64,000 nt of DNA from an uncultured Chthonomonadaceae bacterium (GTDB lineage: Bacteria; Armatimonadota; Chthonomonadetes; Chthonomonadales; Chthonomonadaceae). The position numbers and the translations under genes are program-made. Positions 24,431 through 45,501 of this stretch are shown one piece after another. The stretch lies in the NCBI GenBank assembly GCA_963835065.1, contig CAWIEK010000053.1, positions 288,001 through 352,000 on the forward strand, given 5' to 3'. The notes under the pieces were generated by a model that saw only the letters and a program-made list of their open reading frames with translations, was not told the origin of the DNA and did no database searches. Position 1 is the stretch's first letter. Each line of letters starts with the position of its first letter.

Positions 24431-24563
24431 CGCGCCCCGTCCTTATCCAAAGCCGAAGTAAGCAGGCGTATAACAGTCAGTCTTCCGCTTTGAAGCGCGG
24501 AGGCTGAGGCTGTCATTCCTGCTTACATTATACGGCGTTTGCGCGGGGGAAGTCAATGCACGG

Positions 24564-24675
24564 AAGTAGTCAGTAGTCAGTAGTCAGTAGAAGAACCCAC
24601 TCCTGTAATCTGCTGTTTTAGAACAAAGCCCTGAGTAGAAAGGTATTTCTACTGACTACTGACTACTGACTACTT
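24564..24675. repeat. Inverted heptamer-repeat hairpin element (AGTAGTC)n...(GACTACT)n
   Basis: Direct reading; the right arm encodes the last codons and stop (VVSSQ*) of the HD-GYP/GGDEF gene. Confidence 0.85.
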
Positions 24676-27358
24676 TCCACTTCTCCAACACGCTCGCCAC
24701 TACCGCCGTGTCCAGGCACAGTGGCTCAGAAAACAGACAGCGCACTTCCTTTTCCGTTCTGCCTTCGCGTTCAATCCTGCCTTCGCGTTGTTTTTGTTCC
24801 GTTTTGGTTTGGAACATGCGGCGGTCGGCAATGGCTATCAGGTCTTCCAGGCTGCCGCTGTCATGGGGCGCGCAGGCAATGCCGATACTCACATCCAGAT
24901 GGCAGGACGCATCGAAGTCGGACAGAAAATCGGGGCGATAATTCTGCACCGCGCTGCGAATGCGCGCCGCCACTTCGCGCGCTCCCGTTTCGCCGGATTG
25001 CGGCAGCACGATCACAAACTCATCGCCGCCATAGCGCACGGCCATATCAGTTGGGCGCAGTTCACGCGGCAGTAATTGCGCCACTTCGCGCAGGACGCGG
25101 CTGCCCTGCGGGTGTCCGAAACGCGTATTCATGTTCTTGAAATTGTCCAGGTCGAGGTACAGCAGGGCGCAGTTTCTGCCATTATGCGGTGGGAGAAGGG
25201 AATCCATTTTTTGGCGCAGATAGCGCATATTGTTCAGACCGGTCAGCGCGTCCGTGTTGGCGTTGCTGTACGCGCGGACATACTCCTGTTCCTGACTCAA
25301 TGCGGTCTGCACCTGTTCGGCGATCATAGTCAGCAAATGTTCGTCATCCGCGCTGAAGGCATCCGGGTCGCGATGGTAAAACGTCATCGTTCCCAGAACA
25401 TCCTCGCCGTGCAGCAGGGGCACAATCAGAATAGAGCGCACGGGGCGCGTATCGTCTTCCGACACAGACCAGGTTAATCCTTCCGCGTTGTAAGGGCCGC
25501 GCGCGGTGCGCCGATGACGCGCCGCGATAGCAGAAGGCGCGTTGGCATCCAGCAGGGAATGGTTCAGAAGCACATCCGCGTTGTGCCCCGCAGCGGCGTA
25601 CACGCGCAAGCGGGGTTCGGATGGGGTTTCGTCCGCGCCATCACCTTTATTCCCATTGGCAAGGGCGGCGTTGTTATCCGATGCCGCAGAATTCTGCGCG
25701 GGCCATGCGGACGGCAAGCGCAAGCCCTCCGGCAGCGGGGTATCAAATACCCGGCTCGGAGGAGCGTCATACAGGAAAAAGGCGCAGGTGGTTCCCTGCC
25801 GAATTGCCGTCAGCTTTTCTACCAGTTGTGTCAGCCGCCATTGCATTGGAATGGGCAAATTCAGCTTCTGGCTTATCTCATAAAACACCCACAGCTCCCA
25901 GGCCGAGTGTCCAATCTGGCGCGAAACGCCCGAAGCCGTACTTGCCGCGGAAGGCTGGCCTGTTATGGCTTCCGCGCTTGCCGTCACCAGTTCCAGTTCC
26001 TGCATGGTGAGATCAACCTGATCCACCACTTCCAAAAACGCGCGCACGACCTGCGGATCAAACTGCATCCCGGCTTCTGTAATCAGAAAATCCAGAGTTT
26101 TCTGACGCGGCCAGGCGGTGCGATAAGGACGATCTGACGTGAGGGCGTCGTACACGTCCGCAACCGACAAAATGCGCGCGCTCAAGGGGATGGCCTCGCC
26201 TGCCAGTCCGTCCGGGTAGCCCGTGCCGTCCCATTTCTCATGGTGATGGCGCACCACGTCAGAAACCGGCCAGGGAAACTGAACCGGTTCCAGAATATCC
26301 GCGCCCACTACGGGATGCCGCTTCATCTTCTCAAATTCATCCGGCGTCAGGCGGCCCGGCTTAAGCAGGACGTAATCCGGTACGCCCAGTTTGCCGATGT
26401 CGTGCAGCACCGCCCCGGTGCGAATCGCCTCCAACTCCGCCCCGCTCACGCCCATATTCTGCGCAATCGAAACCGCGTAATGCTGTACGCGGTGGATGTG
26501 GGCATGCGTATACTGATCCTTGGCGGCAATCGCCGTCGCCAGCGATTTCACCGTAGACAGATACAACTCGCTGAGTTCCTCTTTGCCCGCTTCCAGCTCC
26601 TTTTTGCCGGCTTCCAGTTTGTCTATCAACTGCTGCGTTTCGGCAACATGGTCGGCATACAGCTTATTGTAGTATTGCAGCGCGAACGGCACAACCGCCG
26701 CGCCCAGAAGCAGGGTGCGGCTGTCACTGACAAACATCACGGCAAAGGCGACGTAGGCCGCTCCCAGCAAATGCGGAGGAAACGCCCACATAAAATCTTT
26801 ATGCCATAGTATTCGCAGGGAACGGCGCGAGGTCAGGGAAATCATTTTTGCCAGCAAGCCGGCATTCAGAAAAAAATACGTGGTCATCGCCGCGAACACT
26901 GCCGGCAGGGAACCTGGTCTCACCATTCCCACGCCATGATTAAACAGGGCGAAGACCTGCCCGGAACACCAGGCGGTGGTTACGATAGAGGCCATATTGA
27001 ACAGCAGATACCGCAACTGCGTACGGCGCGGATACAAGTCGGCGGCAAGCGTGGAAACAATTCCGGCTAGAACTCCCGCGCGTATTCCCAAAGCCAGTAG
27101 CGTTCCGAATGTCACCAGGAACCCGAGCGTTACATAACGCAACTCGTCCGGCTGTCTGGAATGTAATAAATACACTTTGCGCGTACCCGCAAAGGCCGCC
27201 AGTGTCAGAGCAATGCCGACAGGAAGCAGCGGGAGGTGGTCGCCCGCAACAGGCGGCAGAAGCAGCGTGGCAAGCAGGGCGGCAATTCCCAGCAGACAAA
27301 CTACAACCAGAAAGCCGCGCGCGCTAAAAGATTCGGATGACGAGGATTTAGATGGCAT
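24656..27358 (-). CDS. Membrane-bound HD-GYP + GAF + GGDEF c-di-GMP signalling protein
   Basis: About 6-7 N-terminal TM helices; LHDIGK and HHEKWDGTGYP; GAF (ILIVPL...FSADDEHLL); RPTD I-site and GGDEF. Confidence 0.93.
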   Translation of the reverse strand: MPSKSSSSESFSARGFLVVVCLLGIAALLATLLLPPVAGDHLPLLPVGIALTLAAFAGTRKVYLLHSRQPDELRYVTLGFLVTFGTLLALGIRAGVLAGIVSTLAADLYPRRTQLRYLLFNMASIVTTAWCSGQVFALFNHGVGMVRPGSLPAVFAAMTTYFFLNAGLLAKMISLTSRRSLRILWHKDFMWAFPPHLLGAAYVAFAVMFVSDSRTLLLGAAVVPFALQYYNKLYADHVAETQQLIDKLEAGKKELEAGKEELSELYLSTVKSLATAIAAKDQYTHAHIHRVQHYAVSIAQNMGVSGAELEAIRTGAVLHDIGKLGVPDYVLLKPGRLTPDEFEKMKRHPVVGADILEPVQFPWPVSDVVRHHHEKWDGTGYPDGLAGEAIPLSARILSVADVYDALTSDRPYRTAWPRQKTLDFLITEAGMQFDPQVVRAFLEVVDQVDLTMQELELVTASAEAITGQPSAASTASGVSRQIGHSAWELWVFYEISQKLNLPIPMQWRLTQLVEKLTAIRQGTTCAFFLYDAPPSRVFDTPLPEGLRLPSAWPAQNSAASDNNAALANGNKGDGADETPSEPRLRVYAAAGHNADVLLNHSLLDANAPSAIAARHRRTARGPYNAEGLTWSVSEDDTRPVRSILIVPLLHGEDVLGTMTFYHRDPDAFSADDEHLLTMIAEQVQTALSQEQEYVRAYSNANTDALTGLNNMRYLRQKMDSLLPPHNGRNCALLYLDLDNFKNMNTRFGHPQGSRVLREVAQLLPRELRPTDMAVRYGGDEFVIVLPQSGETGAREVAARIRSAVQNYRPDFLSDFDASCHLDVSIGIACAPHDSGSLEDLIAIADRRMFQTKTEQKQREGRIEREGRTEKEVRCLFSEPLCLDTAVVASVLEKWKVVSSQ

Positions 27359-27502
27359 AAGAAGAGGTCCTCAGAAGCTAAACGCCGATGAAAAAGAGAA
27401 ACACCAATGAAAGTCTTGCGGTTGCCTGCTATGGCACCTGAAGATGATATCAAAGGAGGAGGCGCACTTAACAAGTGGAGGCTAAAAACCACCATTTGTC
27501 CA

Positions 27503-27528
27503 TTATCGGCACTCTTGTTACAGATTTA
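27503..27528 (-). promoter_or_regulatory. Putative sigma28 (FliA/WhiG-type) promoter for the HD-GYP/GGDEF gene
   Basis: Minus strand TAAA-N14-GCCGATAA; perfect -10, spacer one base short of the usual 15. Confidence 0.55.
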
Positions 27529-27582
27529 TAGCCCATTTCGAAAAATTTTCTAAATTTTTTGTCAAAATGTCTATTTTCCCCC

Positions 27583-27610
27583 TAAAGATGCCGGTTTCGT
27601 ATGCCGATGG
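27583..27610 (+). promoter_or_regulatory. Putative sigma28-type promoter for the S8 peptidase gene
   Basis: TAAA-N16-GCCGATGG. Confidence 0.5.
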
Positions 27611-28032
27611 TCTTAGTAAGAGATTGACCCTGCCCTTATAAGCGGCGCTGTTCAGGCTCCTTCAACGGCAAAGACCAGCGCGCACCTTCCACATTCAGGT
27701 CTTCTTCCACTCCGCGCCCCGCCGCGCAGACATACGCTTTGTTGCGTACCTTGCTTTGCATGCCGGTTCGTTACGGCAGCGTTTTGCGGCAGTCGGCAAT
27801 TTCCTGCCAACTCGAAGCAGCGAATTACCGGGATGTTCTTTCGCTTTTCCGCATTTCACGGGTACAGGCAATTTCAGACTGTTCATCGCCTTCCTTGATA
27901 CTTCCAATCGCAGCCCTTTCTACGCAACTCTCCGCCAGGTTGACGAGAAAAGACAACCCCTGACCGGTTCCGGCTGTTCCCATTCAACAATGTTCGCTTC
28001 TACTCTCATCAGTATTCTTATATAAGGAGAGA

Positions 28033-29946
28033 ATGATGACCGTTTTGCCCACGCAGACGCGCTTTATTGCGTCTTTCAACTCATCTTCAACAGCAAACCG
28101 CTCTCGTCGCGCGCGGCTGTCCGGTTTTGGACTGCTGACGGGCGCGTTTGCGCTTTCAACCGGCGCTTGGTCGCCCGCGCAAGCAGCATCCGCTCCGCCC
28201 GCGCATCTCTCGCCGACAGACAGCGCCAAAATCGCGCCCTTTGTGCGCCAGCGCCTGTCCGGTACGTCTGGCGACTTGATTCCCGTCATCGTCAAAACCG
28301 ATGGAACTATTCCCGCTTCCGTCCAGGGGCTGGTGGGCAAAACTTCGCTCACCGCGTTTGCTTTCCCGCGCGCCGGCAAGAATACGCCGGCGCTGGCGCT
28401 GCTCAACCGGGGTGACGTGATGGCGGCGCGGCTGGACGCGCGGAGCATTGCCGCCCTGGCCGCAGACCGTCATACGCTCCACATCTCGCCGGATTTGCCC
28501 GTGCAAACGTTCAGTTCCGGCCCGGCTTATCTGGATTACGCGATGGAAGCGACGGGCATCAACTACCTGCAAGCCAGCCACAATCTGTCAGGCCGGGGCG
28601 TCGGGGTTGCTGTCGTAGATACCGGCATTTATCCGCACAACGACCTGTCGCAAACGGCCTCGCGCATTGTCGGCTGGACAGATTTGGTGCAGAACCTCAG
28701 CCAGCCCTACGATGACAACGGGCATGGCACACACGTCGCCGGGTTGGTGGGCGGCAACGGAAACACTTCGGCTGCCAACGGATATATCACTTCGTTTGTC
28801 CGCTCCGCTCCCAACACGTCGCTTATCGGCGTGAAAGTGCTGGACAGAACCGGCGGCGGCAGCGTCAGTACGGTGATTGCGGGCATCAACTGGTGCATCG
28901 CGCATCGAGCGCAATACAACATCCGCGTCATGAATTTAAGCGTGGGGCATCCCATCGGCGAAAGCTACCAGACCGATCCGTTGTGCCAGGCTTGCGAACA
29001 AGCGTGGGCGGCGGGCATTACGGTTGTCGTGGCGGCAGGCAACAACGGACGCAGCGTGCCGAGCGACCCCAACAGCCCCACGCAGTACGGCTCGATTACC
29101 AGTCCCGGCAACGATCCGAGCGTGATTACCGTAGGCGCAGTCAACACGCGGGGCACGCTCCTGCGCGACGACGACCTCATCTGCACCTACAGCAGCCGGG
29201 GGCCGAGCATGGGCGATCTGGTTCTCAAGCCCGACATCGTTGCGCCCGGCAACAACATCATCAGCCTGGCCGCGCCGGGCAGCGCACTGTTCGCGCAGGC
29301 CGGCGGCAACCTGCTCACCCCATCAGATTACGGCGGCACGGGGAGTCAGGCGTATATGACGCTGTCGGGCACGTCCATGGCGGCGCCCATCGTGTCCGGC
29401 GCAGTCGCCCTCATGCTGGAAGCCGACCCGACCTTAACCCCGGATACCGTCAAAGCGCGCCTGATGCTGTCGGCCACCAAGACCGCCACTATGGATTATC
29501 AGTCTTACGGGGCCGGATATATTAATGTAGTGGGCGCGCTGGCCTTGACGCAGGTAACAGCCGATCATTCGATCAGCCCTTCCCTGACCCGCCTTTCCAA
29601 TGGCACGGTGGATATTACCAACTTCGGCTGGGGCGGCAACATCGTTGACCAGAACTTCGGTTGGGGCTACAACGGCACGGACAAAAAAATCACGGCGGAA
29701 AACTTCGGGTGGGGCTACAACGGCCCGGTGGGAAAAGACGGCAAGCTGTACGACGATTCCGACTACCTGACGCCGCAGAACTTCGGCTGGGGCGACAACG
29801 GCTTTACGGGCCTGGGCGTGTTCGGACCGCAAACCCTGCCCACCAACGTCGGCCCGACCGACCCCGCGCTGTGGAACGGCCACATCACGCCAATCAACAC
29901 GCCCACGCAAACCGACTGCCTGAGCCTGCTGTTTCGAGGCGATTAG
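28033..29946 (+). CDS. Secreted subtilisin-family (S8, AprX-like) peptidase with a C-terminal NFGWG repeat tail
   Basis: AAGGAG RBS; signal peptide; triad VVDTG / HGTHVAG / SGTSMA; oxyanion AAGN; four NFGWGxN repeats at 29620-29799. Confidence 0.95.
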   Translation: MMTVLPTQTRFIASFNSSSTANRSRRARLSGFGLLTGAFALSTGAWSPAQAASAPPAHLSPTDSAKIAPFVRQRLSGTSGDLIPVIVKTDGTIPASVQGLVGKTSLTAFAFPRAGKNTPALALLNRGDVMAARLDARSIAALAADRHTLHISPDLPVQTFSSGPAYLDYAMEATGINYLQASHNLSGRGVGVAVVDTGIYPHNDLSQTASRIVGWTDLVQNLSQPYDDNGHGTHVAGLVGGNGNTSAANGYITSFVRSAPNTSLIGVKVLDRTGGGSVSTVIAGINWCIAHRAQYNIRVMNLSVGHPIGESYQTDPLCQACEQAWAAGITVVVAAGNNGRSVPSDPNSPTQYGSITSPGNDPSVITVGAVNTRGTLLRDDDLICTYSSRGPSMGDLVLKPDIVAPGNNIISLAAPGSALFAQAGGNLLTPSDYGGTGSQAYMTLSGTSMAAPIVSGAVALMLEADPTLTPDTVKARLMLSATKTATMDYQSYGAGYINVVGALALTQVTADHSISPSLTRLSNGTVDITNFGWGGNIVDQNFGWGYNGTDKKITAENFGWGYNGPVGKDGKLYDDSDYLTPQNFGWGDNGFTGLGVFGPQTLPTNVGPTDPALWNGHITPINTPTQTDCLSLLFRGD

Positions 29947-30066: not shown

Positions 30067-30104
30067 CGAGTGGAGGCAGAAACATTGTTTTCTGCCTCCA
30101 CTCG
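30067..30104. terminator. Terminator hairpin between convergent genes
   Basis: CGAGTGGAGGCAGAAA / TTTCTGCCTCCACTCG, perfect 16-bp stem. Confidence 0.75.
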
Positions 30105-30146: not shown

Positions 30147-30518
30147 CTATGGACGCGCTGTAATCGTTACTTTGCCACCGATAACAGCCTCAAAAAATAC
30201 ATCATGCCCTTGCAGCAGTCTCGTTCCTAACAGTGGATCGGTATCGGCAACTTCCACATAAACATTGCGCAACCTGCCGTCCCATTCCACAAACCCAACG
30301 TAAACATCAATCTCTTCCAACACGCCATTTGCCAATGTAGTTATGCTATGCGTAAGCCAAACCAAGCCAAGTTCACGAACCTGCTGCGGACTCAAAGTGA
30401 GCGATCCATTGAAGCCGGTGTCCACCAGAAAAGAAATCGTTTGTTTATTCCCGGCAGAACTTCGTATTGTCAAAGGAACTCGTGGCTCGTAATGTTCATC
30501 TACAAAGCCAGGAATCAT
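30147..30518 (-). CDS. Clan AA (retropepsin-like) aspartic protease
   Basis: FLVDTGFNG and PLLG motifs; 123 aa. Confidence 0.85.
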   Translation of the reverse strand: MIPGFVDEHYEPRVPLTIRSSAGNKQTISFLVDTGFNGSLTLSPQQVRELGLVWLTHSITTLANGVLEEIDVYVGFVEWDGRLRNVYVEVADTDPLLGTRLLQGHDVFFEAVIGGKVTITARP

Positions 30519-30790
30519 GTCGTTATCCTTGTTCTGCGGAAGCCGAACCGGTACGCAGTAGCATGTCCTGCCCGCATCAGCCACAATTGCGCATCAGGAT
30601 TGCGCAGCAAGAGACGTTCTCCTGCCGTATAATCGTCCTCATCCACCTCGTAATCGCCGGTTTCAATGTCAATGGCGACAAATTTGCCGTTGTGCTGCGG
30701 TTCGACGTGGGCGCGGATGTTGTTATAGTAGAGCGCTTCCCCGCGTTGCGCGAACTCTTCTTTGCTGTAACGTGGTTCTCGTGCCTGCAT
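30515..30790 (-). CDS. Small partner protein of the aspartic protease (DUF5678-like)
   Basis: GKFVAIDIETGDYEVD motif; 4-nt overlap with the protease gene. Confidence 0.75.
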   Translation of the reverse strand: MQAREPRYSKEEFAQRGEALYYNNIRAHVEPQHNGKFVAIDIETGDYEVDEDDYTAGERLLLRNPDAQLWLMRAGHATAYRFGFRRTRITT

Positions 30791-34670: not shown

Positions 34671-35965
34671 TTATTTATGCCGCAGGCTGTGGGCGGCGAT
34701 GTCGCGGCGGTAGTGGATGCCGTCGAAATGGAGACAGCCTAATCCGGCGTAAGCGCGATTGGCGGCGGTCTGCACATCCTCCCCTACCCCCGTGACGCTC
34801 AACACGCGCCCGCCATCCGTTACCACGTCATGGTGCTGCCGTTTTGTGCCCGCGTGGAAGACGAGACAGCCTTCGCTTTCCGCCGCCTGTTCCAAGCCCG
34901 TAATGGGCTTGCCCGTGTCGAAATTGCCGGGATAGCCGCCCGATGCCGCCACCACGCACACGGACGCGCTTGCGCCGCCATTGCGCCGCGGTGTTCGTTC
35001 AGGCTGCAATCGGCCACGCCCATCAGGAGCGGAACCAGATCGCTGTCGAGCAGGGGCAGCACGGCCTGCGTTTCCGGGTCGCCAAGCCGACAGTTAAATT
35101 CGATGGTTTTCAAACCCTCGGACGTGACCATGATGCCCGCGTACAACACGCCCCGATACGGAATGCCCAACTCGCCGATTGCTTTGATGGCGGGACGTAA
35201 AATCTGCTCTATTGCCACTTCCACCACATCCGGCGGCAGAATGGGAACGGGACTGTACGCGCCCATGCCGCCCGTGTTCGGTCCCAAGCCGCCGTCAAAA
35301 GCGCGTTTGTGATCCTGCGAGGGAACCAGGGGAATCAGGGCGTCGCCATCCGTCAAGGCCATAATGGACGCTTCCTCGCCGACAAGACACTCCTCAATCA
35401 CCACTTTGTCCCCAGCCGCGCCAAATACGCGGTCCGCCATGATGTGTTCCACGCCCGCGTAGGCTTCCCCCGCGTCTTTAGCGACCACAACCCCCTTGCC
35501 TGCCGCCAAACCATCCGCTTTGATGACAATGCGCGTTTCGGGCGGATGCTGCCGGTAAAAATCATCCAGACAGGTTCGCGCTTCGGCCAGAGACGCGCAT
35601 ACCCAGAACGGCGCAGTGGGAATGTCGGCGGCCTGCATCAATTGCTTGGCGAAAATCTTGCTGCCTTCCAGCCGCGCCGGCCCGCTTGCCGGCCCGACAA
35701 CCGGCAGTCCCGCCGCCTCGAACCGATCTACCAACCCCGCCATAAGCGGCGCTTCCGGCCCGACAACCGTTAGATCCATCCGGTTCTCAGTTGCAAAGCG
35801 CGTCAAGCCGTTCACATCGCTCACGCTCAGGGGAACGCACTCCGCCAGTTGCGCGATCCCGGCATTGCCCGGCGCGCAGTAAATTTTCGTCACAGAGGGG
35901 CTTTGCGCGATCTTCCACGCCAGCGCATGTTCCCGCCCGCCCCCGCCAACAATCAGTACGCGCAT
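34671..35965 (-). CDS. purD: Phosphoribosylamine-glycine ligase; frameshifted at about 34965-35000
   Basis: GGGGREHA, KADGLAAGKGV, QDHKR, NTGGMG, EFNCRLGDPE; the C-terminal GYPG..FHAGT..GGRV..YRRDI is in another frame. Confidence 0.95.
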
Positions 35966-35967
35966 GG

Positions 35968-38900
35968 TTATTCCTCCAAATCCCCCGGCGCGCGGTCGGT
36001 CATATTTTCAAAGCGCGTGTACTGCGGCATGAACCCGACGAACACTTTGCCGGTCGGCCCGCTGCGGTGCTTGGCGAGTATCAGTTCCGTTTCCTCAATT
36101 TTTTCCGAATCCCGATTGCCCTGCTGATCCTCCGCGCCCTCTTCTTTCGCCTTGTAATAGGCATCGCGATAGATAAACATCACGATGTCGGCTTCAGCTT
36201 CTATCGAGCCGCTGTTATGCGCAACAATGCCGTTCGCCAGAAAATTAGCGCAGTCTACTTTGATGTCGAACGTTTCCTGCTCACCTGTGGCTTCAATGCT
36301 GCTAATGCCTTCCCAAAGCAGATCACTGCCTATCAACTCTTTCAGGGCAGACTCTGAATTTGCGGCGGGAGGATAGATAGCAGTGGCAATTACATCCCCC
36401 GTCTTTAGCTCGTCCAGCCGCTTCCAGCCGTTTGCGGTCAGGAATGGATGATTAGCCGAGGCTGTTACCTGCCGCCCTGTGCGCGTCGTTAGCGTCCATA
36501 CCGGCTTAACTCCGGTTGACCAAACATCCTGCACCTGATACTTGCCGATTTTCTGATCGCGTCCCATGCCTAGAATGGTACTGCCGGGCTGAACATCCCG
36601 AATAGCTACCTGCCGTCCCGTATGCGCGTCCGTCAGGCGCGTGTCGCCAACGACGCACTCGCGCAAGTCCGATAGCATAGGGCGTTTATCCGGCCTTGAT
36701 TCCACTGCGCGGGACAATTGGGAGAGGGCAATCACCGGGACGCGCAATTCACGCGCTAGTTGCTTGCAGGCGCGGGCGATTTCGGAGATTTCCTGCGTTC
36801 GGTTGTCCGTTTTTTTATGGGAGCGCATGAGCTGCAAATAGTCAATGACAATCAGCCCTAACCCCTGTTCGGCTTTCAGGCGGCGGCACTTGGCGCGCAT
36901 TTCCATTGCGGAAATATCGGGCGAATCGTCAATGTAGATCGGCGCTTCCGACAGGCGGTTGATGCCTTCTCCCACACGCTGCCAGTCATCGCCTTGCAGG
37001 TTGCCGTTGCGTAATCTGTTGGAATCTACTTTCGATTCGGAGCAGATCATACGGGTGACAAGCTGCTCTTTCGACATTTCTAGACTGAAAATCGCCACCG
37101 GCACATTCTCAGTCATTGCTATAAATTGCGCCATTTGAACAGTTAAACTTGTATTATGAACGCAAACATCCTGCGCAATGAAGTTCGCGCCGTCAGGAAC
37201 GGTCAGATCGTATACTTGATGTGAACCAATAGCTTCAATGCTGACGATTTCATCCCAATACAAATCTGCGCTTGCAATCTGACGCAGGCGCGGCGATTGC
37301 AGCACTTCAGCATACTTCGCAAGCCGTATGCGAGGCAGGGAACGATTGGTATGCGGATTGTAGCCATCCTTGCCTGCGCCCTTTTCGCTACAACGTCGCG
37401 CCAGTTCGCTTAGAGAAAGCCCGGCCTTTGCCGATTCCGCGCGTACAAGGTTCCACACTGCCTGCGGCGGATGCCCCACAATACTACGGCGCATGTCGCT
37501 TGTTTCCATACCGGTTTCCGCAAGCGGGCTTGCCACGCGGAAGACGCGAGTTGCCTTCTCGCCAAACCAGCCGATTTCCTGCTGATAAGTGGCGACGGAT
37601 TGCGGCTCGGTGATTTCGACGCGCCAGCAGCGCTCGCTTTTACGCCACAACTTGCTGACAATGCCAAAGCGCGTCAGGGCATGGTGTACATCTCCCGCCA
37701 ACAGTTCGGACGCAACCGCAAACTCAATGCGGCCATAGCCTGCCATGCCGTAAATCGTGCCGTCGCAACTGAACAAAATGCGCAGGAACTCGGCCAGCCG
37801 TTCCCGCTTCCAACTCCACACGCAAGCCGGGAAACGCTTCGCGTCCGCTTTTTTGCCCATCAACTTCAAATCGCGCAGCCAAACGGTAATGGGATTGGGG
37901 CGGTTGGAACGCTGCTGTTGGACAACGGCGTAGTCAATGCCGTACTGTTTGATGACACATTCTGGAAAATGCCGCGCAATCAGCGCCTTGAAGTCGGCAA
38001 CTATTATGGGGTCAACATTCGTGAAGCGCGGCGACGTGCCGGACAAGCCGCCTTCAGCGAGGAAATAAGCCATCAATCGAGCCAGGCCCGGCGCGTAATC
38101 TTCCTGCCCGAAGCAGGGTACGGAACGTGGTACGCCGATCTTATCGCCCACTTCCAGACAATGCAAAGGCGTCCAGCCCTGTACGGTGAGGAACGGATGA
38201 TGCCCGGTTACATCTACGCTGCGCCCCGTCCGCGTTCGTACCCGAAAGCAAGGCTGTATGCCGCTGTCAATCCAATCCGAAACTGCCGTAACGCGGACCT
38301 CGCCCCGCTCCGACACGCCGAACACGACAGGCAATTTCTCCCGGATGCACTGCTCCAATGTTTGCCGCTCGCCGGTTAAGGGATTATCCATCAGAGTATA
38401 AGCCGGCAGGCACTTGCCCATACCTGGTCGGGCAGCAATAATAATCAAATCGGAAGGATTCAGGCCGTTGGTTTTCCAGTTCAGGTCGTCGAAGGGGGTC
38501 ATGCGCCCGTTGCCGGTGCCTTTGTTCTCATAGCGCTTTTCGATCCGGTCCAATTCTTCGTGGAGCAGGGGTCGAATGTGGTAAAAAAACTGCCCCATGC
38601 GCCGCTGCCCGATTTCAAACACCAGTCTTTCCGCGCGATCTACAACTTCATCTACCTCATTGAATTCGGAGTACGCCAACCCTTGTATTTGCGTACCAAC
38701 GTCCATCAGCTTGCGCAGGATAGACTTTTCCTCTACCATCTTCGCGTAATACTCGATGTTGGCGGCAGTTGCGGGGGCTTCCATCAGGTTTTGCAGATAA
38801 AACCGCCCGCCCGCGATTTCCCCCAGGTCGCGCCCGTTGAGTTCATCCATCACGGTCAGGATGTCTACAGGTTCGTCGCGCTCGGCAAGAGCAAGCATCG

Positions 38901-39069
38901 CCTCGAAAATGAAGCGGTGCGCGTCCCGGTAAAAATCATCGGGCTTGAGCAGTTCCGCCGCTTTTTCTACAGCGGGGCGTTCGATCAGCATGGAACCCAA
39001 TACGGCTTGTTCGGCTTCCAGACTTTGGGGAGGAACGCGGTCAAAAGGCGACATTCGATCCAGCGCCAA
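35968..39069 (-). CDS. dnaB: Replicative DNA helicase with two inteins
   Basis: PPQSLEAEQAVLG, AARPGMGK|T, SLEM, IDYLQL, LSQLSR, DLRE|SG; TTG start after AAGGAGG. Confidence 0.97.
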   Translation of the reverse strand: MALDRMSPFDRVPPQSLEAEQAVLGSMLIERPAVEKAAELLKPDDFYRDAHRFIFEAMLALAERDEPVDILTVMDELNGRDLGEIAGGRFYLQNLMEAPATAANIEYYAKMVEEKSILRKLMDVGTQIQGLAYSEFNEVDEVVDRAERLVFEIGQRRMGQFFYHIRPLLHEELDRIEKRYENKGTGNGRMTPFDDLNWKTNGLNPSDLIIIAARPGMGKCLPAYTLMDNPLTGERQTLEQCIREKLPVVFGVSERGEVRVTAVSDWIDSGIQPCFRVRTRTGRSVDVTGHHPFLTVQGWTPLHCLEVGDKIGVPRSVPCFGQEDYAPGLARLMAYFLAEGGLSGTSPRFTNVDPIIVADFKALIARHFPECVIKQYGIDYAVVQQQRSNRPNPITVWLRDLKLMGKKADAKRFPACVWSWKRERLAEFLRILFSCDGTIYGMAGYGRIEFAVASELLAGDVHHALTRFGIVSKLWRKSERCWRVEITEPQSVATYQQEIGWFGEKATRVFRVASPLAETGMETSDMRRSIVGHPPQAVWNLVRAESAKAGLSLSELARRCSEKGAGKDGYNPHTNRSLPRIRLAKYAEVLQSPRLRQIASADLYWDEIVSIEAIGSHQVYDLTVPDGANFIAQDVCVHNTSLTVQMAQFIAMTENVPVAIFSLEMSKEQLVTRMICSESKVDSNRLRNGNLQGDDWQRVGEGINRLSEAPIYIDDSPDISAMEMRAKCRRLKAEQGLGLIVIDYLQLMRSHKKTDNRTQEISEIARACKQLARELRVPVIALSQLSRAVESRPDKRPMLSDLRECVVGDTRLTDAHTGRQVAIRDVQPGSTILGMGRDQKIGKYQVQDVWSTGVKPVWTLTTRTGRQVTASANHPFLTANGWKRLDELKTGDVIATAIYPPAANSESALKELIGSDLLWEGISSIEATGEQETFDIKVDCANFLANGIVAHNSGSIEAEADIVMFIYRDAYYKAKEEGAEDQQGNRDSEKIEETELILAKHRSGPTGKVFVGFMPQYTRFENMTDRAPGDLEE
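36214..36657 (-). mobile_element. Mini-intein (148 aa) in DnaB
   Basis: CVVGD...SANHPF...NFLANGIVAHN followed by Ser; no endonuclease domain. Confidence 0.92.
37153..38412 (-). mobile_element. Intein (420 aa) with LAGLIDADG homing endonuclease, inserted in the DnaB P-loop
   Basis: CLPAY...TGHHPF...VYDLTV..NFIAQDVCVHN followed by Thr; LMAYFLAEG and FLRILFSCDG blocks. Confidence 0.94.
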
Positions 39070-39087
39070 GACGGCCTCCTTAATGGG

Positions 39088-39348
39088 CAAGGATGAAGGA
39101 TGAAGGATGAAGGATGAAAATACCGGTATTCAGGTATTCAGGTATTCAGGTATTCGGTGTTCGGTGTTTGGGCAGGCAGCCGGGTTAGTACAGCAGTTAT
39201 TCAGCACAGCAATTGTCGGGAAACAAAGAACATTGCGACAAAACAAAATGAAGTGAAAAGTTGGGAGAAGGAACCCGCAACGCTTGCGACAGGCAGCCAT
39301 TGCGGGCGCGAGGAAAATTCATCCTTCATCCTTCATCCTTCATCCTTG
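39088..39348. repeat. Inverted heptamer element (AGGATGA)n...(TCATCCT)n enclosing a (CAGGTATT)n arm
   Basis: Direct reading; supplies the rplI stop codon. Confidence 0.85.
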
Positions 39349-45202: not shown

Positions 45203-45274
45203 AGGAGCCGACCAGAATCGAACTGGTGATCGCGGTTTTGCAGACCGCTCCCTTAGCCACTTGGGTACGGCTCC
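45203..45274 (-). tRNA. tRNA-Cys (GCA)
   Basis: GGAGCCG/CGGCTCC acceptor stem, CT-GCA-AA loop, GTTCGATTC T arm, U discriminator; CCA not encoded. Confidence 0.95.

Positions 45275-45429: not shown

Positions 45430-45501
<72 letters not shown>

Follow-up and report, generated by a model that had tools for sequence, protein, structure and literature searches.

A tailed subtilisin and a MASE9-like HD-GYP/GGDEF receptor as a probable peptide-signalling pair in Armatimonadota

The window analysed here is a stretch of 64,000 nucleotides from an uncultured Chthonomonadaceae bacterium of the phylum Armatimonadota (assembly GCA_963835065.1, contig CAWIEK010000053.1, positions 288,001 to 352,000). Two of its genes lie head to head: one codes for a subtilisin-type (S8) protease, whose C-terminal tail carries four copies of the motif NFGWG, the other for a membrane receptor with HD-GYP, GAF and GGDEF domains. 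As genes of these two types travel together across the phylum, the tail is likely to be a cut-out peptide signal, which would tune the biofilm messenger c-di-GMP (cyclic di-guanosine monophosphate). This tail is probably a multi-copy peptide precursor for the receptor's membrane domain, related to the MASE9 family, within a c-di-GMP feedback loop, where peptides would be released by cleavage and bound by the receptor.

The pairing of protease and sensor is real. In the genome of origin, the only two MASE9-like genes adjoin the only two W-G-tailed S8 genes (out of five S8 matches), and the two pairs differ in their repeat: NFGWG in the window, RAIWG on contig C37. Among 41 related genomes, the tailed protease was found in 15 and the sensor in 14; in the 33 which are at least 90% complete, both genes are present in 10, neither in 23, and only one of them in none. 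S8 genes of any sort, used as a control, are present in 40 of the 41. For 251 Armatimonadota genomes the counts are 54 with both genes, 1 with the protease only, 16 with the sensor only and 180 with neither; these include kin genomes, which are not independent, and tails were checked in the fetched loci (38 of 40 new loci, the other two being unparsed). Adjacency holds less strictly: by our own tally, a neighbour of the other kind is present for 14 of the 20 sensors and for 15 of the 34 proteases in the 41 relatives, and an S8 gene lies within 7 kb in 30 of 52 further sensor loci, many of the others ending at a contig edge. A metagenome search by the repeat motif alone returned at least 122 stretches: in 48 of the 79 loci examined the motif lies in an S8 open reading frame (ORF), and 35 loci contain a gene like MASE9, of which 29 belong to these 48. 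The link of this membrane domain with tailed S8 genes, for which a sequence-only reading of the window had put forward enrichment in the adjacent gene as a check, is supported by a conserved neighbourhood and near-strict co-occurrence across genomes. Chance neighbourhood was rejected, on the basis of the co-occurrence counts and of the general S8 control.

The C37 pair (L001:9298-13954, L numbers indicating our loci) is arranged in tandem, receptor first, and its protease features six RAIWG copies. Both genes are frameshifted, the receptor within its GGDEF part and the protease close to its catalytic Asp, which may be an assembly error or a sign of decay. In many loci from Capsulimonadaceae and 'Armatimonadales' (L090, L096, L097, L100-L104, L107-L113, L117), a divergent GGDEF-HD-GYP gene lies head to head with the receptor. 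Stand-alone MASE9 proteins of about 250 residues, lacking an output domain, are encoded directly 3' of tailed S8 genes in other loci (L124, L130, L132, L151, L153, L154, L174, L176, L188, L191, L194, L196 and others), where they make up 17 of the 36 MASE9-like ORFs in the motif-first set; L181 features a double-MASE9 protein. Possible roles for the stand-alone proteins are those of co-receptor, sink or transporter.

The protease gene (28033..29946, + strand) codes for 637 residues; the likely start is the second ATG, at 28036, because of the spacing from the ribosome binding site in relatives. The N-terminus (28033..28185) resembles, by eye, a signal peptide, with a basic region, a hydrophobic stretch and AQA, and is disordered in the AlphaFold model. 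It is followed by a folded subtilisin-type prodomain (28186..28509, with approximate boundaries) and by the catalytic domain (28591..29517), where residues 187-495 match Pfam Peptidase_S8 with an E value of 1.5e-54. The intact D/H/S triad of the sequence-only reading is confirmed: D196 (at 28618), H231 (28723) and S448 (29374), together with the oxyanion N337 (29041), are kept in all 96 aligned homologs. Triad, oxyanion Asn and prodomain are those of an AprX-like S8A subtilisin, and the best structural match is ProN-Tk-SP (3afg). Named homologs are mostly from Armatimonadota, and JGI labels many homologs 'serine protease AprX'.

The four NFGWG copies also stand as first described, with variable spacers and the C-terminus LLFRGD. 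They start at residues 530, 541, 557 and 583 (29620..29634, 29653..29667, 29701..29715 and 29779..29793), that is 11, 16 and 26 residues apart; T, Q, E and Q precede them, while G, Y, Y and D, each with a subsequent N, follow. Among the 69,977 ORFs in all six frames of the genome (8.0 Mb), NFGWG is found four times, always within this protein, and only 11 out of 20,000 shuffles of the protease sequence contain any pentapeptide three or more times. AlphaFold predicts an unstructured tail, the predicted local distance difference test (pLDDT) being below 50 over residues 534-627. The tail ends in a conserved element, D-x5-hydrophobic-x-G-[DE] (29908..29943), predicted to be a helix; a 16-bp terminator-like hairpin (30067..30104) is found 3' of the gene. 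In a set made up of the query and its top-ranking homologs, the catalytic motif could be parsed in 119 proteins; 107 of these have at least two WG in the tail, and the repeat is uniform inside each protein, differing from protein to protein. No Pfam or NCBIfam model covers such x-x-hydrophobic-W-G tails ending in G[DE].

Loci where MASE9 is present without the protease offer a second kind of association. In three out of three such loci from other phyla, an ORF of 25-38 residues, similar to a signal peptide, lies immediately upstream. All three ORFs are unannotated: in Natranaerobius thermophilus (L119:3682-3768) about 28 residues end in GASFTWGGGG, 45 bp before the MASE9 gene; in Nonomuraea gerenzanensis (L120:5686-5790) the end is PPGVSWT, 18 bp before an hdgA/hdgB-like pair; in Euzebya pacifica (L242:3664-3750) the ORF closes with GAPQKWG, and 13 bp separate it from a MASE9-like GGDEF-EAL gene. 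A filter for small Trp-containing ORFs, set after these loci, selects exactly one ORF in each of the three 9-13 kb loci, against a frequency of about 0.7% per 300 bp in the genome of origin. The same filter was then applied unchanged to 16 protease-less Armatimonadota genomes: a tiny signal-peptide-like ORF lies right upstream of MASE9 in 15 of them (no upstream small peptide ORF was found in G072), and 5, from two families, pass the filter, with the motif GA-x-x-x-W-P. No such upstream ORF accompanies any of the 50 receptors of the protease-linked clade. MASE9 is therefore nearly always found either with a repeat-tailed protease or with a very small aromatic peptide that is likely exported. 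This is the strongest argument for regarding the tail as the ligand.

Some of these small-peptide operons also feature DUF5317: in two of the five genomes passing the filter (L245:2413-3159, L260:2552-3328), 3' of the Natranaerobius MASE9 gene (L119:5330-5611) and, fused to EAL, after the Euzebya gene (L242:5788-8328). Two Asp positions in a four-row alignment are the sole basis on which DUF5317 might be a candidate membrane aspartic peptidase; no Atlas or PDB relative of it was found. The Natranaerobius MASE9-HD-GYP gene is split in two ORFs in the record (L119:3813-5104). An Rfam scan of eight loci gave no match ahead of the small-peptide operons, though some conserved sequence can be seen there.

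Co-variation of repeat and receptor, a further check, gave a mixed answer. Across 27 pairs from Armatimonadota, the correlation of repeat distance is 0.69 with sensor distance and 0.69 with HD-GYP distance, and lower (0.48) with that of the protease's own catalytic domain; partial correlations are 0.31 for the receptor and -0.09 for the catalytic domain. Fewer changes of repeat label are needed on the sensor tree (7) than on the HD-GYP or protease trees (9 each), and in two paralogs of genome G001, with HD-GYP domains only about 0.01 substitutions per site apart, the sensors are distant and the repeats differ. A more specific trend was seen post hoc: repeats with Arg at position -3 are paired with Asp or Glu at one mid-membrane column of the receptor in all 18 cases, whereas 6 of the 20 Armatimonadota pairs with other repeats have such a residue there. 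In new pairs, for which the rule was predicted beforehand, Asp or Glu was found in 3 of 5 Arg-type pairs versus 2 of 24 others (Fisher p 0.024), 29 loci being scored out of 40 fetched, after dropping 2 duplicates, 2 unparsed proteases and 7 without a dominant motif. The window receptor has T128 in this column, and its pair (NFGWG, Thr128) falls in a separate clade in all three trees. Tree changes and the Arg-Asp/Glu trend are in favour. Over all 32 pairs, the partial Mantel test gave no significant result for the sensor (p 0.07). The co-variation is suggestive of a loose match and falls short of proof.

The receptor gene (24656..27358, - strand) codes for 900 residues: a MASE9-like membrane domain, a coiled coil, then HD-GYP, GAF and GGDEF domains. 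The membrane domain (26618..27331, residues 10-247) is not matched by Pfam MASE9 (PF20972), and its paralog reaches 19.7 bits, below the cut-off, which is 24.3. Matches were found in 34 of the 46 relatives scanned, out of 150 listed, 17 of them over the cut-off; by hhalign, a profile of the family is related to the over-cut-off Natranaerobius MASE9 with a probability of 99.3 and an E value of 3e-20. The domain had been taken for six to seven transmembrane segments; the confident AlphaFold model (pLDDT 91) corrects this to eight helices, two of them (H70-81 and H83-99) short. Eight membrane segments with a short hairpin, and conserved aromatic and Asn/Ser positions, agree with the hallmarks by which MASE9 was described; the conserved residues are F120, N121, N165, W185 and W191, along with a Ser replaced by Thr77 in the window receptor. 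A membrane domain of no known kind was accordingly rejected as an interpretation. With a profile built here, the family counts 4,090 representatives at E <= 0.001. Genome contigs searched with the single window membrane domain, and viral contigs searched with a canonical MASE9 protein, gave nothing usable; plasmid searches returned the query records only for MASE9 domains, and 8 matches to the catalytic domain for the protease.

The model of the membrane domain points to a substrate-binding (S) component fold of energy-coupling factor (ECF) transporters. ECF S-components fill the first 14 places among its fold matches, with Z from 9.7 to 12.8 (values under about 13 being weak for helical bundles), and rank 15, BtuM, drops to 7.5; Foldseek also puts ECF S-components first, with E > 0.02. 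The six-helix core superposes at a root-mean-square deviation of 3-4 Å over 150-180 residues, with 8-14% identity. For loops 2-3, 4-5 and 6-7 the Lys+Arg count is 3.4, 2.4 and 2.0, and for the remaining loops it is 1.0, 0.5, 0.9 and 0.6: by the positive-inside rule, both termini would therefore lie inside, with conserved residues and pocket-side loops on the cytoplasmic side. This orientation is apparently the reverse of that of transporter S-components.

The sequence-only reading had described both output domains as intact. This holds for HD-GYP (26048..26542, HD_5 at residues 273-437), where all motifs (DxYT, HD, KPG, HHExxDGxGYP, RPYR) are complete, as expected of a phosphodiesterase by the pattern HD, HHExxDGxGYP, KPG and RxY[K/R]. 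By motif matching, the third-metal position is Tyr, suggesting the binuclear type according to the criteria of bioRxiv 10.1101/2021.11.05.467447. A GAF domain, matched in its C-terminal part, spans 25295..25609 (residues 584-688). For GGDEF (24788..25261, residues 700-857) the claim is less assured. The motif itself (777-781), RxxD (768-771) and the metal-binding DxDxFK are present; of the guanine-binding pair, Asn744 is kept, while Ser753 replaces an Asp found in 40 of 45 receptors, the window one included. We take positions 744 and 753 to be N335 and the guanine-binding D344 of PleD. Cyclase activity is thus doubtful in the clade of the window receptor, and regulation by the window copy is likely to be mainly through HD-GYP, because of Ser753.

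The head-to-head arrangement is as reported, with 674 bp between the two ORFs (27359..28032). A promoter scan stayed at chance level. Upstream of tailed protease genes in relatives, c-di-GMP-I riboswitches, often in tandem, are found in 3 of 11, 4 of 16, 9 of 10 and 8 of 20 loci, the second set sharing one locus with the first. In the 41 genomes, 17 of 63 c-di-GMP-I matches fall within 1.2 kb upstream of 12 of 34 tailed proteases, unlinked ones included. Feedback from output to precursor is thus suggested for 12 of 34 related genes, and not for the window gene; in many relatives the riboswitch would close a loop of the autoinduction type.

Taken together, the likely exported protease is likely to act as both precursor and maturase of its own multi-copy signal, cutting short NFGWG-containing peptides out of the predicted disordered tail, by self-cleavage at presumed sites. 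The released W-G peptides would bind the neighbouring MASE9 domain, with its predicted ligand-binding S-component fold, and binding would shift the HD-GYP/GGDEF output and hence the c-di-GMP level, in one direction or the other. In many relatives, the c-di-GMP-I riboswitch ahead of the protease gene would feed back on precursor synthesis. An apparently exported putative precursor is genetically tied to a receptor, as in peptide quorum sensing. A complex prediction for the sensor domain and tail residues 529-561 scored 0.02 and was used neither for nor against binding.

A number of results weigh against the tail being a cut-out signal. Repeat spacings in relatives peak at 6, 11 and 12 residues (112, 74 and 51 intervals), and some tails hold 14-16 hexapeptide copies, as a beta-helix would; the low pLDDT of the tail may reflect poor alignment of the repeats. 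No consistent cut motif was readable at the prodomain junction, and the residues there did not point to a cut site in the tail. The conserved terminal helix and the hexapeptide periodicity would both fit a domain that stays attached. The tail could be the MASE9 ligand but remain uncut, attached or released whole, possibly as a hexapeptide beta-helix presenting W-G multivalently to a receptor that senses the mature protease. Six-residue periodicity and long perfect arrays argue for this, as does the G[DE] element: 93 out of the 96 homologs have it among their last 12 residues, it is confidently modelled, and a disposable tail would call for less conservation. Hexapep, moreover, is found in 16% of a language-model neighbour cluster, to be taken as a lead only. 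The window spacers of 11, 16 and 26 residues fit poorly, however; single-copy small ORFs fill the same genomic role without any array, and ECF S-component pockets hold small ligands. For a hexapeptide solenoid itself the signs are divided: the period is 6, 11 or 12 in relatives, the window tail is irregularly spaced and of low confidence in the one model made, and Pfam finds no Hexapep match in the window protease. We consider an uncut ligand unlikely.

Other points against a released signal concern how strictly its parts belong together. Of the 34 proteases in the 41 relatives, 19 lack a sensor in the flanks that were fetched; a single genome has five proteases and one sensor, and in some loci two or three proteases of differing repeats stand beside one receptor. 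The equal correlation of the repeat with HD-GYP and sensor indicates that shared descent explains much of it. Both Arg pairs of genome G061 break the Asp/Glu rule, as do two (L279, L293) of the nine non-duplicate rows dropped from the new-pair test. The Trp filter failed in 11 of the 16 sensor-only genomes; ten of these, all from one genus, show a conserved ORF upstream, recognized by eye afterwards, which bears GA-KLEIYP and a stretch of prolines. These Tyr-Pro ORFs, of 38 residues, precede MASE9-HD-GYP in L243, L244, L248, L251-L254, L256, L258 and L261; a conserved non-coding stretch lies ahead of them, with no Rfam match in the three loci scanned, and the upstream hypothetical gene resembles, by eye, that of Natranaerobius. 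Finally, Rfam predicts no riboswitch in the intergenic region of the window, nor in its clade or at the C37 locus. The quorum-sensing-like circuit first proposed for the window thus keeps the support of pairing, partial co-variation, W-peptide ORFs and riboswitches, but its description as a two-gene system is too narrow, given the unlinked proteases and the multiple proteases per receptor.

These results could also mean that MASE9 senses a small molecule, such as Trp, a dipeptide with Trp or a compound resembling a vitamin, the protease being an output controlled by c-di-GMP and its tail an anchor to matrix or surface. Vitamins and metals are known ligands of the S-component fold, the riboswitches place the protease gene downstream of c-di-GMP, and the many unlinked proteases and the equal correlation with HD-GYP and sensor speak for it too. 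Left without explanation are the co-occurrence of unlinked genes (54 of 55 protease genomes), the W/Y peptide ORFs directly upstream of protease-less MASE9 and the Arg-Asp/Glu trend, and we hold a small-molecule ligand to be rather improbable.

Topology, too, raises a difficulty for a peptide ligand: a pocket facing the cytoplasm would not be directly reachable from outside, so that a peptide may enter MASE9 from the membrane, or need import. The outside loops are short and poorly conserved, in agreement with Galperin and Chou (bioRxiv 10.1101/2021.11.05.467447). The same loops argue against a scheme in which the target of the repeats is the protease, which they would serve as autoinhibitory pseudo-substrate or export signal, and in which cleavage by the protease would activate the receptor or destroy it. 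In favour of this scheme the conserved terminal helix may be invoked, and the stand-alone MASE9 proteins encoded after S8 genes could be membrane docking partners; the repeat, though, tracks the receptor better than its own catalytic domain, according to the partial correlations. Such self-acting repeats appear highly improbable.

A wider reading may also be drawn, which we regard as evenly poised between right and wrong: MASE9 would be a widespread family of peptide-pheromone receptors with an inverted S-component fold, its ligands being short aromatic-Gly/Pro peptides, from self-cut subtilisin tails or from exported ORFs of 25-40 residues, some beside DUF5317. With riboswitches on the precursor gene, Armatimonadota, Bacillota, Actinomycetota (at the hdgA/hdgB-like locus) and likely Acidobacteriota would thereby have a quorum-sensing loop of an undescribed kind. 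An orphan sensor family would gain a synthesisable ligand, testable at once, culturable Streptomyces-type hdgA/hdgB loci included. Cell-to-cell peptide signalling would be wired directly to c-di-GMP in soil phyla, where our searches found none described; a protease would serve as the multi-copy precursor of its own pheromone, and the fold of a transporter would be reused as a receptor.

All component families are known, and the receptor architecture is already published as MASE9. MASE9-HD-GYP(-GAF-GGDEF) proteins were described by Galperin and Chou (bioRxiv 10.1101/2021.11.05.467447), the ligand being unknown there; the accessible part of that paper names no MASE9 ligand, fold or partner gene, and the words 'peptidase' and 'protease' do not occur in its main text. 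For HdgA of Streptomyces venezuelae, the authors of PMC6205966 suggested that the signal which activates it was absent in the conditions they used. No description of the pairing, of a MASE9 ligand, of an S-component fold of MASE9 or of the riboswitch link was found in a literature search that left most subscription papers outside.

Elsewhere in the window, a small aspartyl-protease-like gene (Pfam Asp_protease_2, 30147-30790, - strand), with a 91-residue partner ORF, lies just beyond the S8 terminator. A gene presumed to be purD-like (34671-35965, -) shows an apparent frameshift near 35000, its C-terminal part being in another frame. A DnaB-like helicase of 1040 residues (35968-39090, -) apparently contains two inteins, judging from their motifs. 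A sigma-70-like promoter (11/12; 24527-24556, -) precedes a gene which we take to be hisD-like, and two tRNA genes are located at 45203-45274 and 45430-45501 (-).

Compared with known systems, the window receptor shares with MASE9-HD-GYP proteins (PF20972) the architecture, the eight predicted helices, two of them short, and the conserved aromatic and Asn/Ser positions; it differs in that its membrane domain falls below Pfam detection. With ECF S-components (RibU, FolT, CbiM/NikM) the domain shares the predicted six-helix core (Z up to 12.8), while being fused to signalling enzymes, having an extra C-terminal helix and being apparently inverted. Prodomain and catalytic domain of the protease are like those of Bacillus AprX and Thermococcus Tk-SP, from which it is set apart by the W-G repeat tail ending in G[DE] and by its linkage to MASE9. 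Yeast alpha-factor with Kex2 and the cyanobactin system of PatE, PatA and PatG likewise combine short cores in multiple copies, variable spacers and an S8 maturase; in the Kex2 and PatA/PatG systems precursor and protease are encoded by separate genes, whereas here they form one chain, in which no conserved flanking cut motif was found. Agr, ComC/ComD and Phr-Rap feature an exported precursor, proteolytic maturation, a dedicated receptor, feedback on the precursor and paired variants, all of which are proposed here too; in the proposed system, however, the precursor would be the protease's own multi-copy tail, the receptor a MASE9 domain with an S-component fold, the output c-di-GMP, and the feedback a riboswitch. 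By analogy with these systems, the pair would work like peptide quorum sensing.

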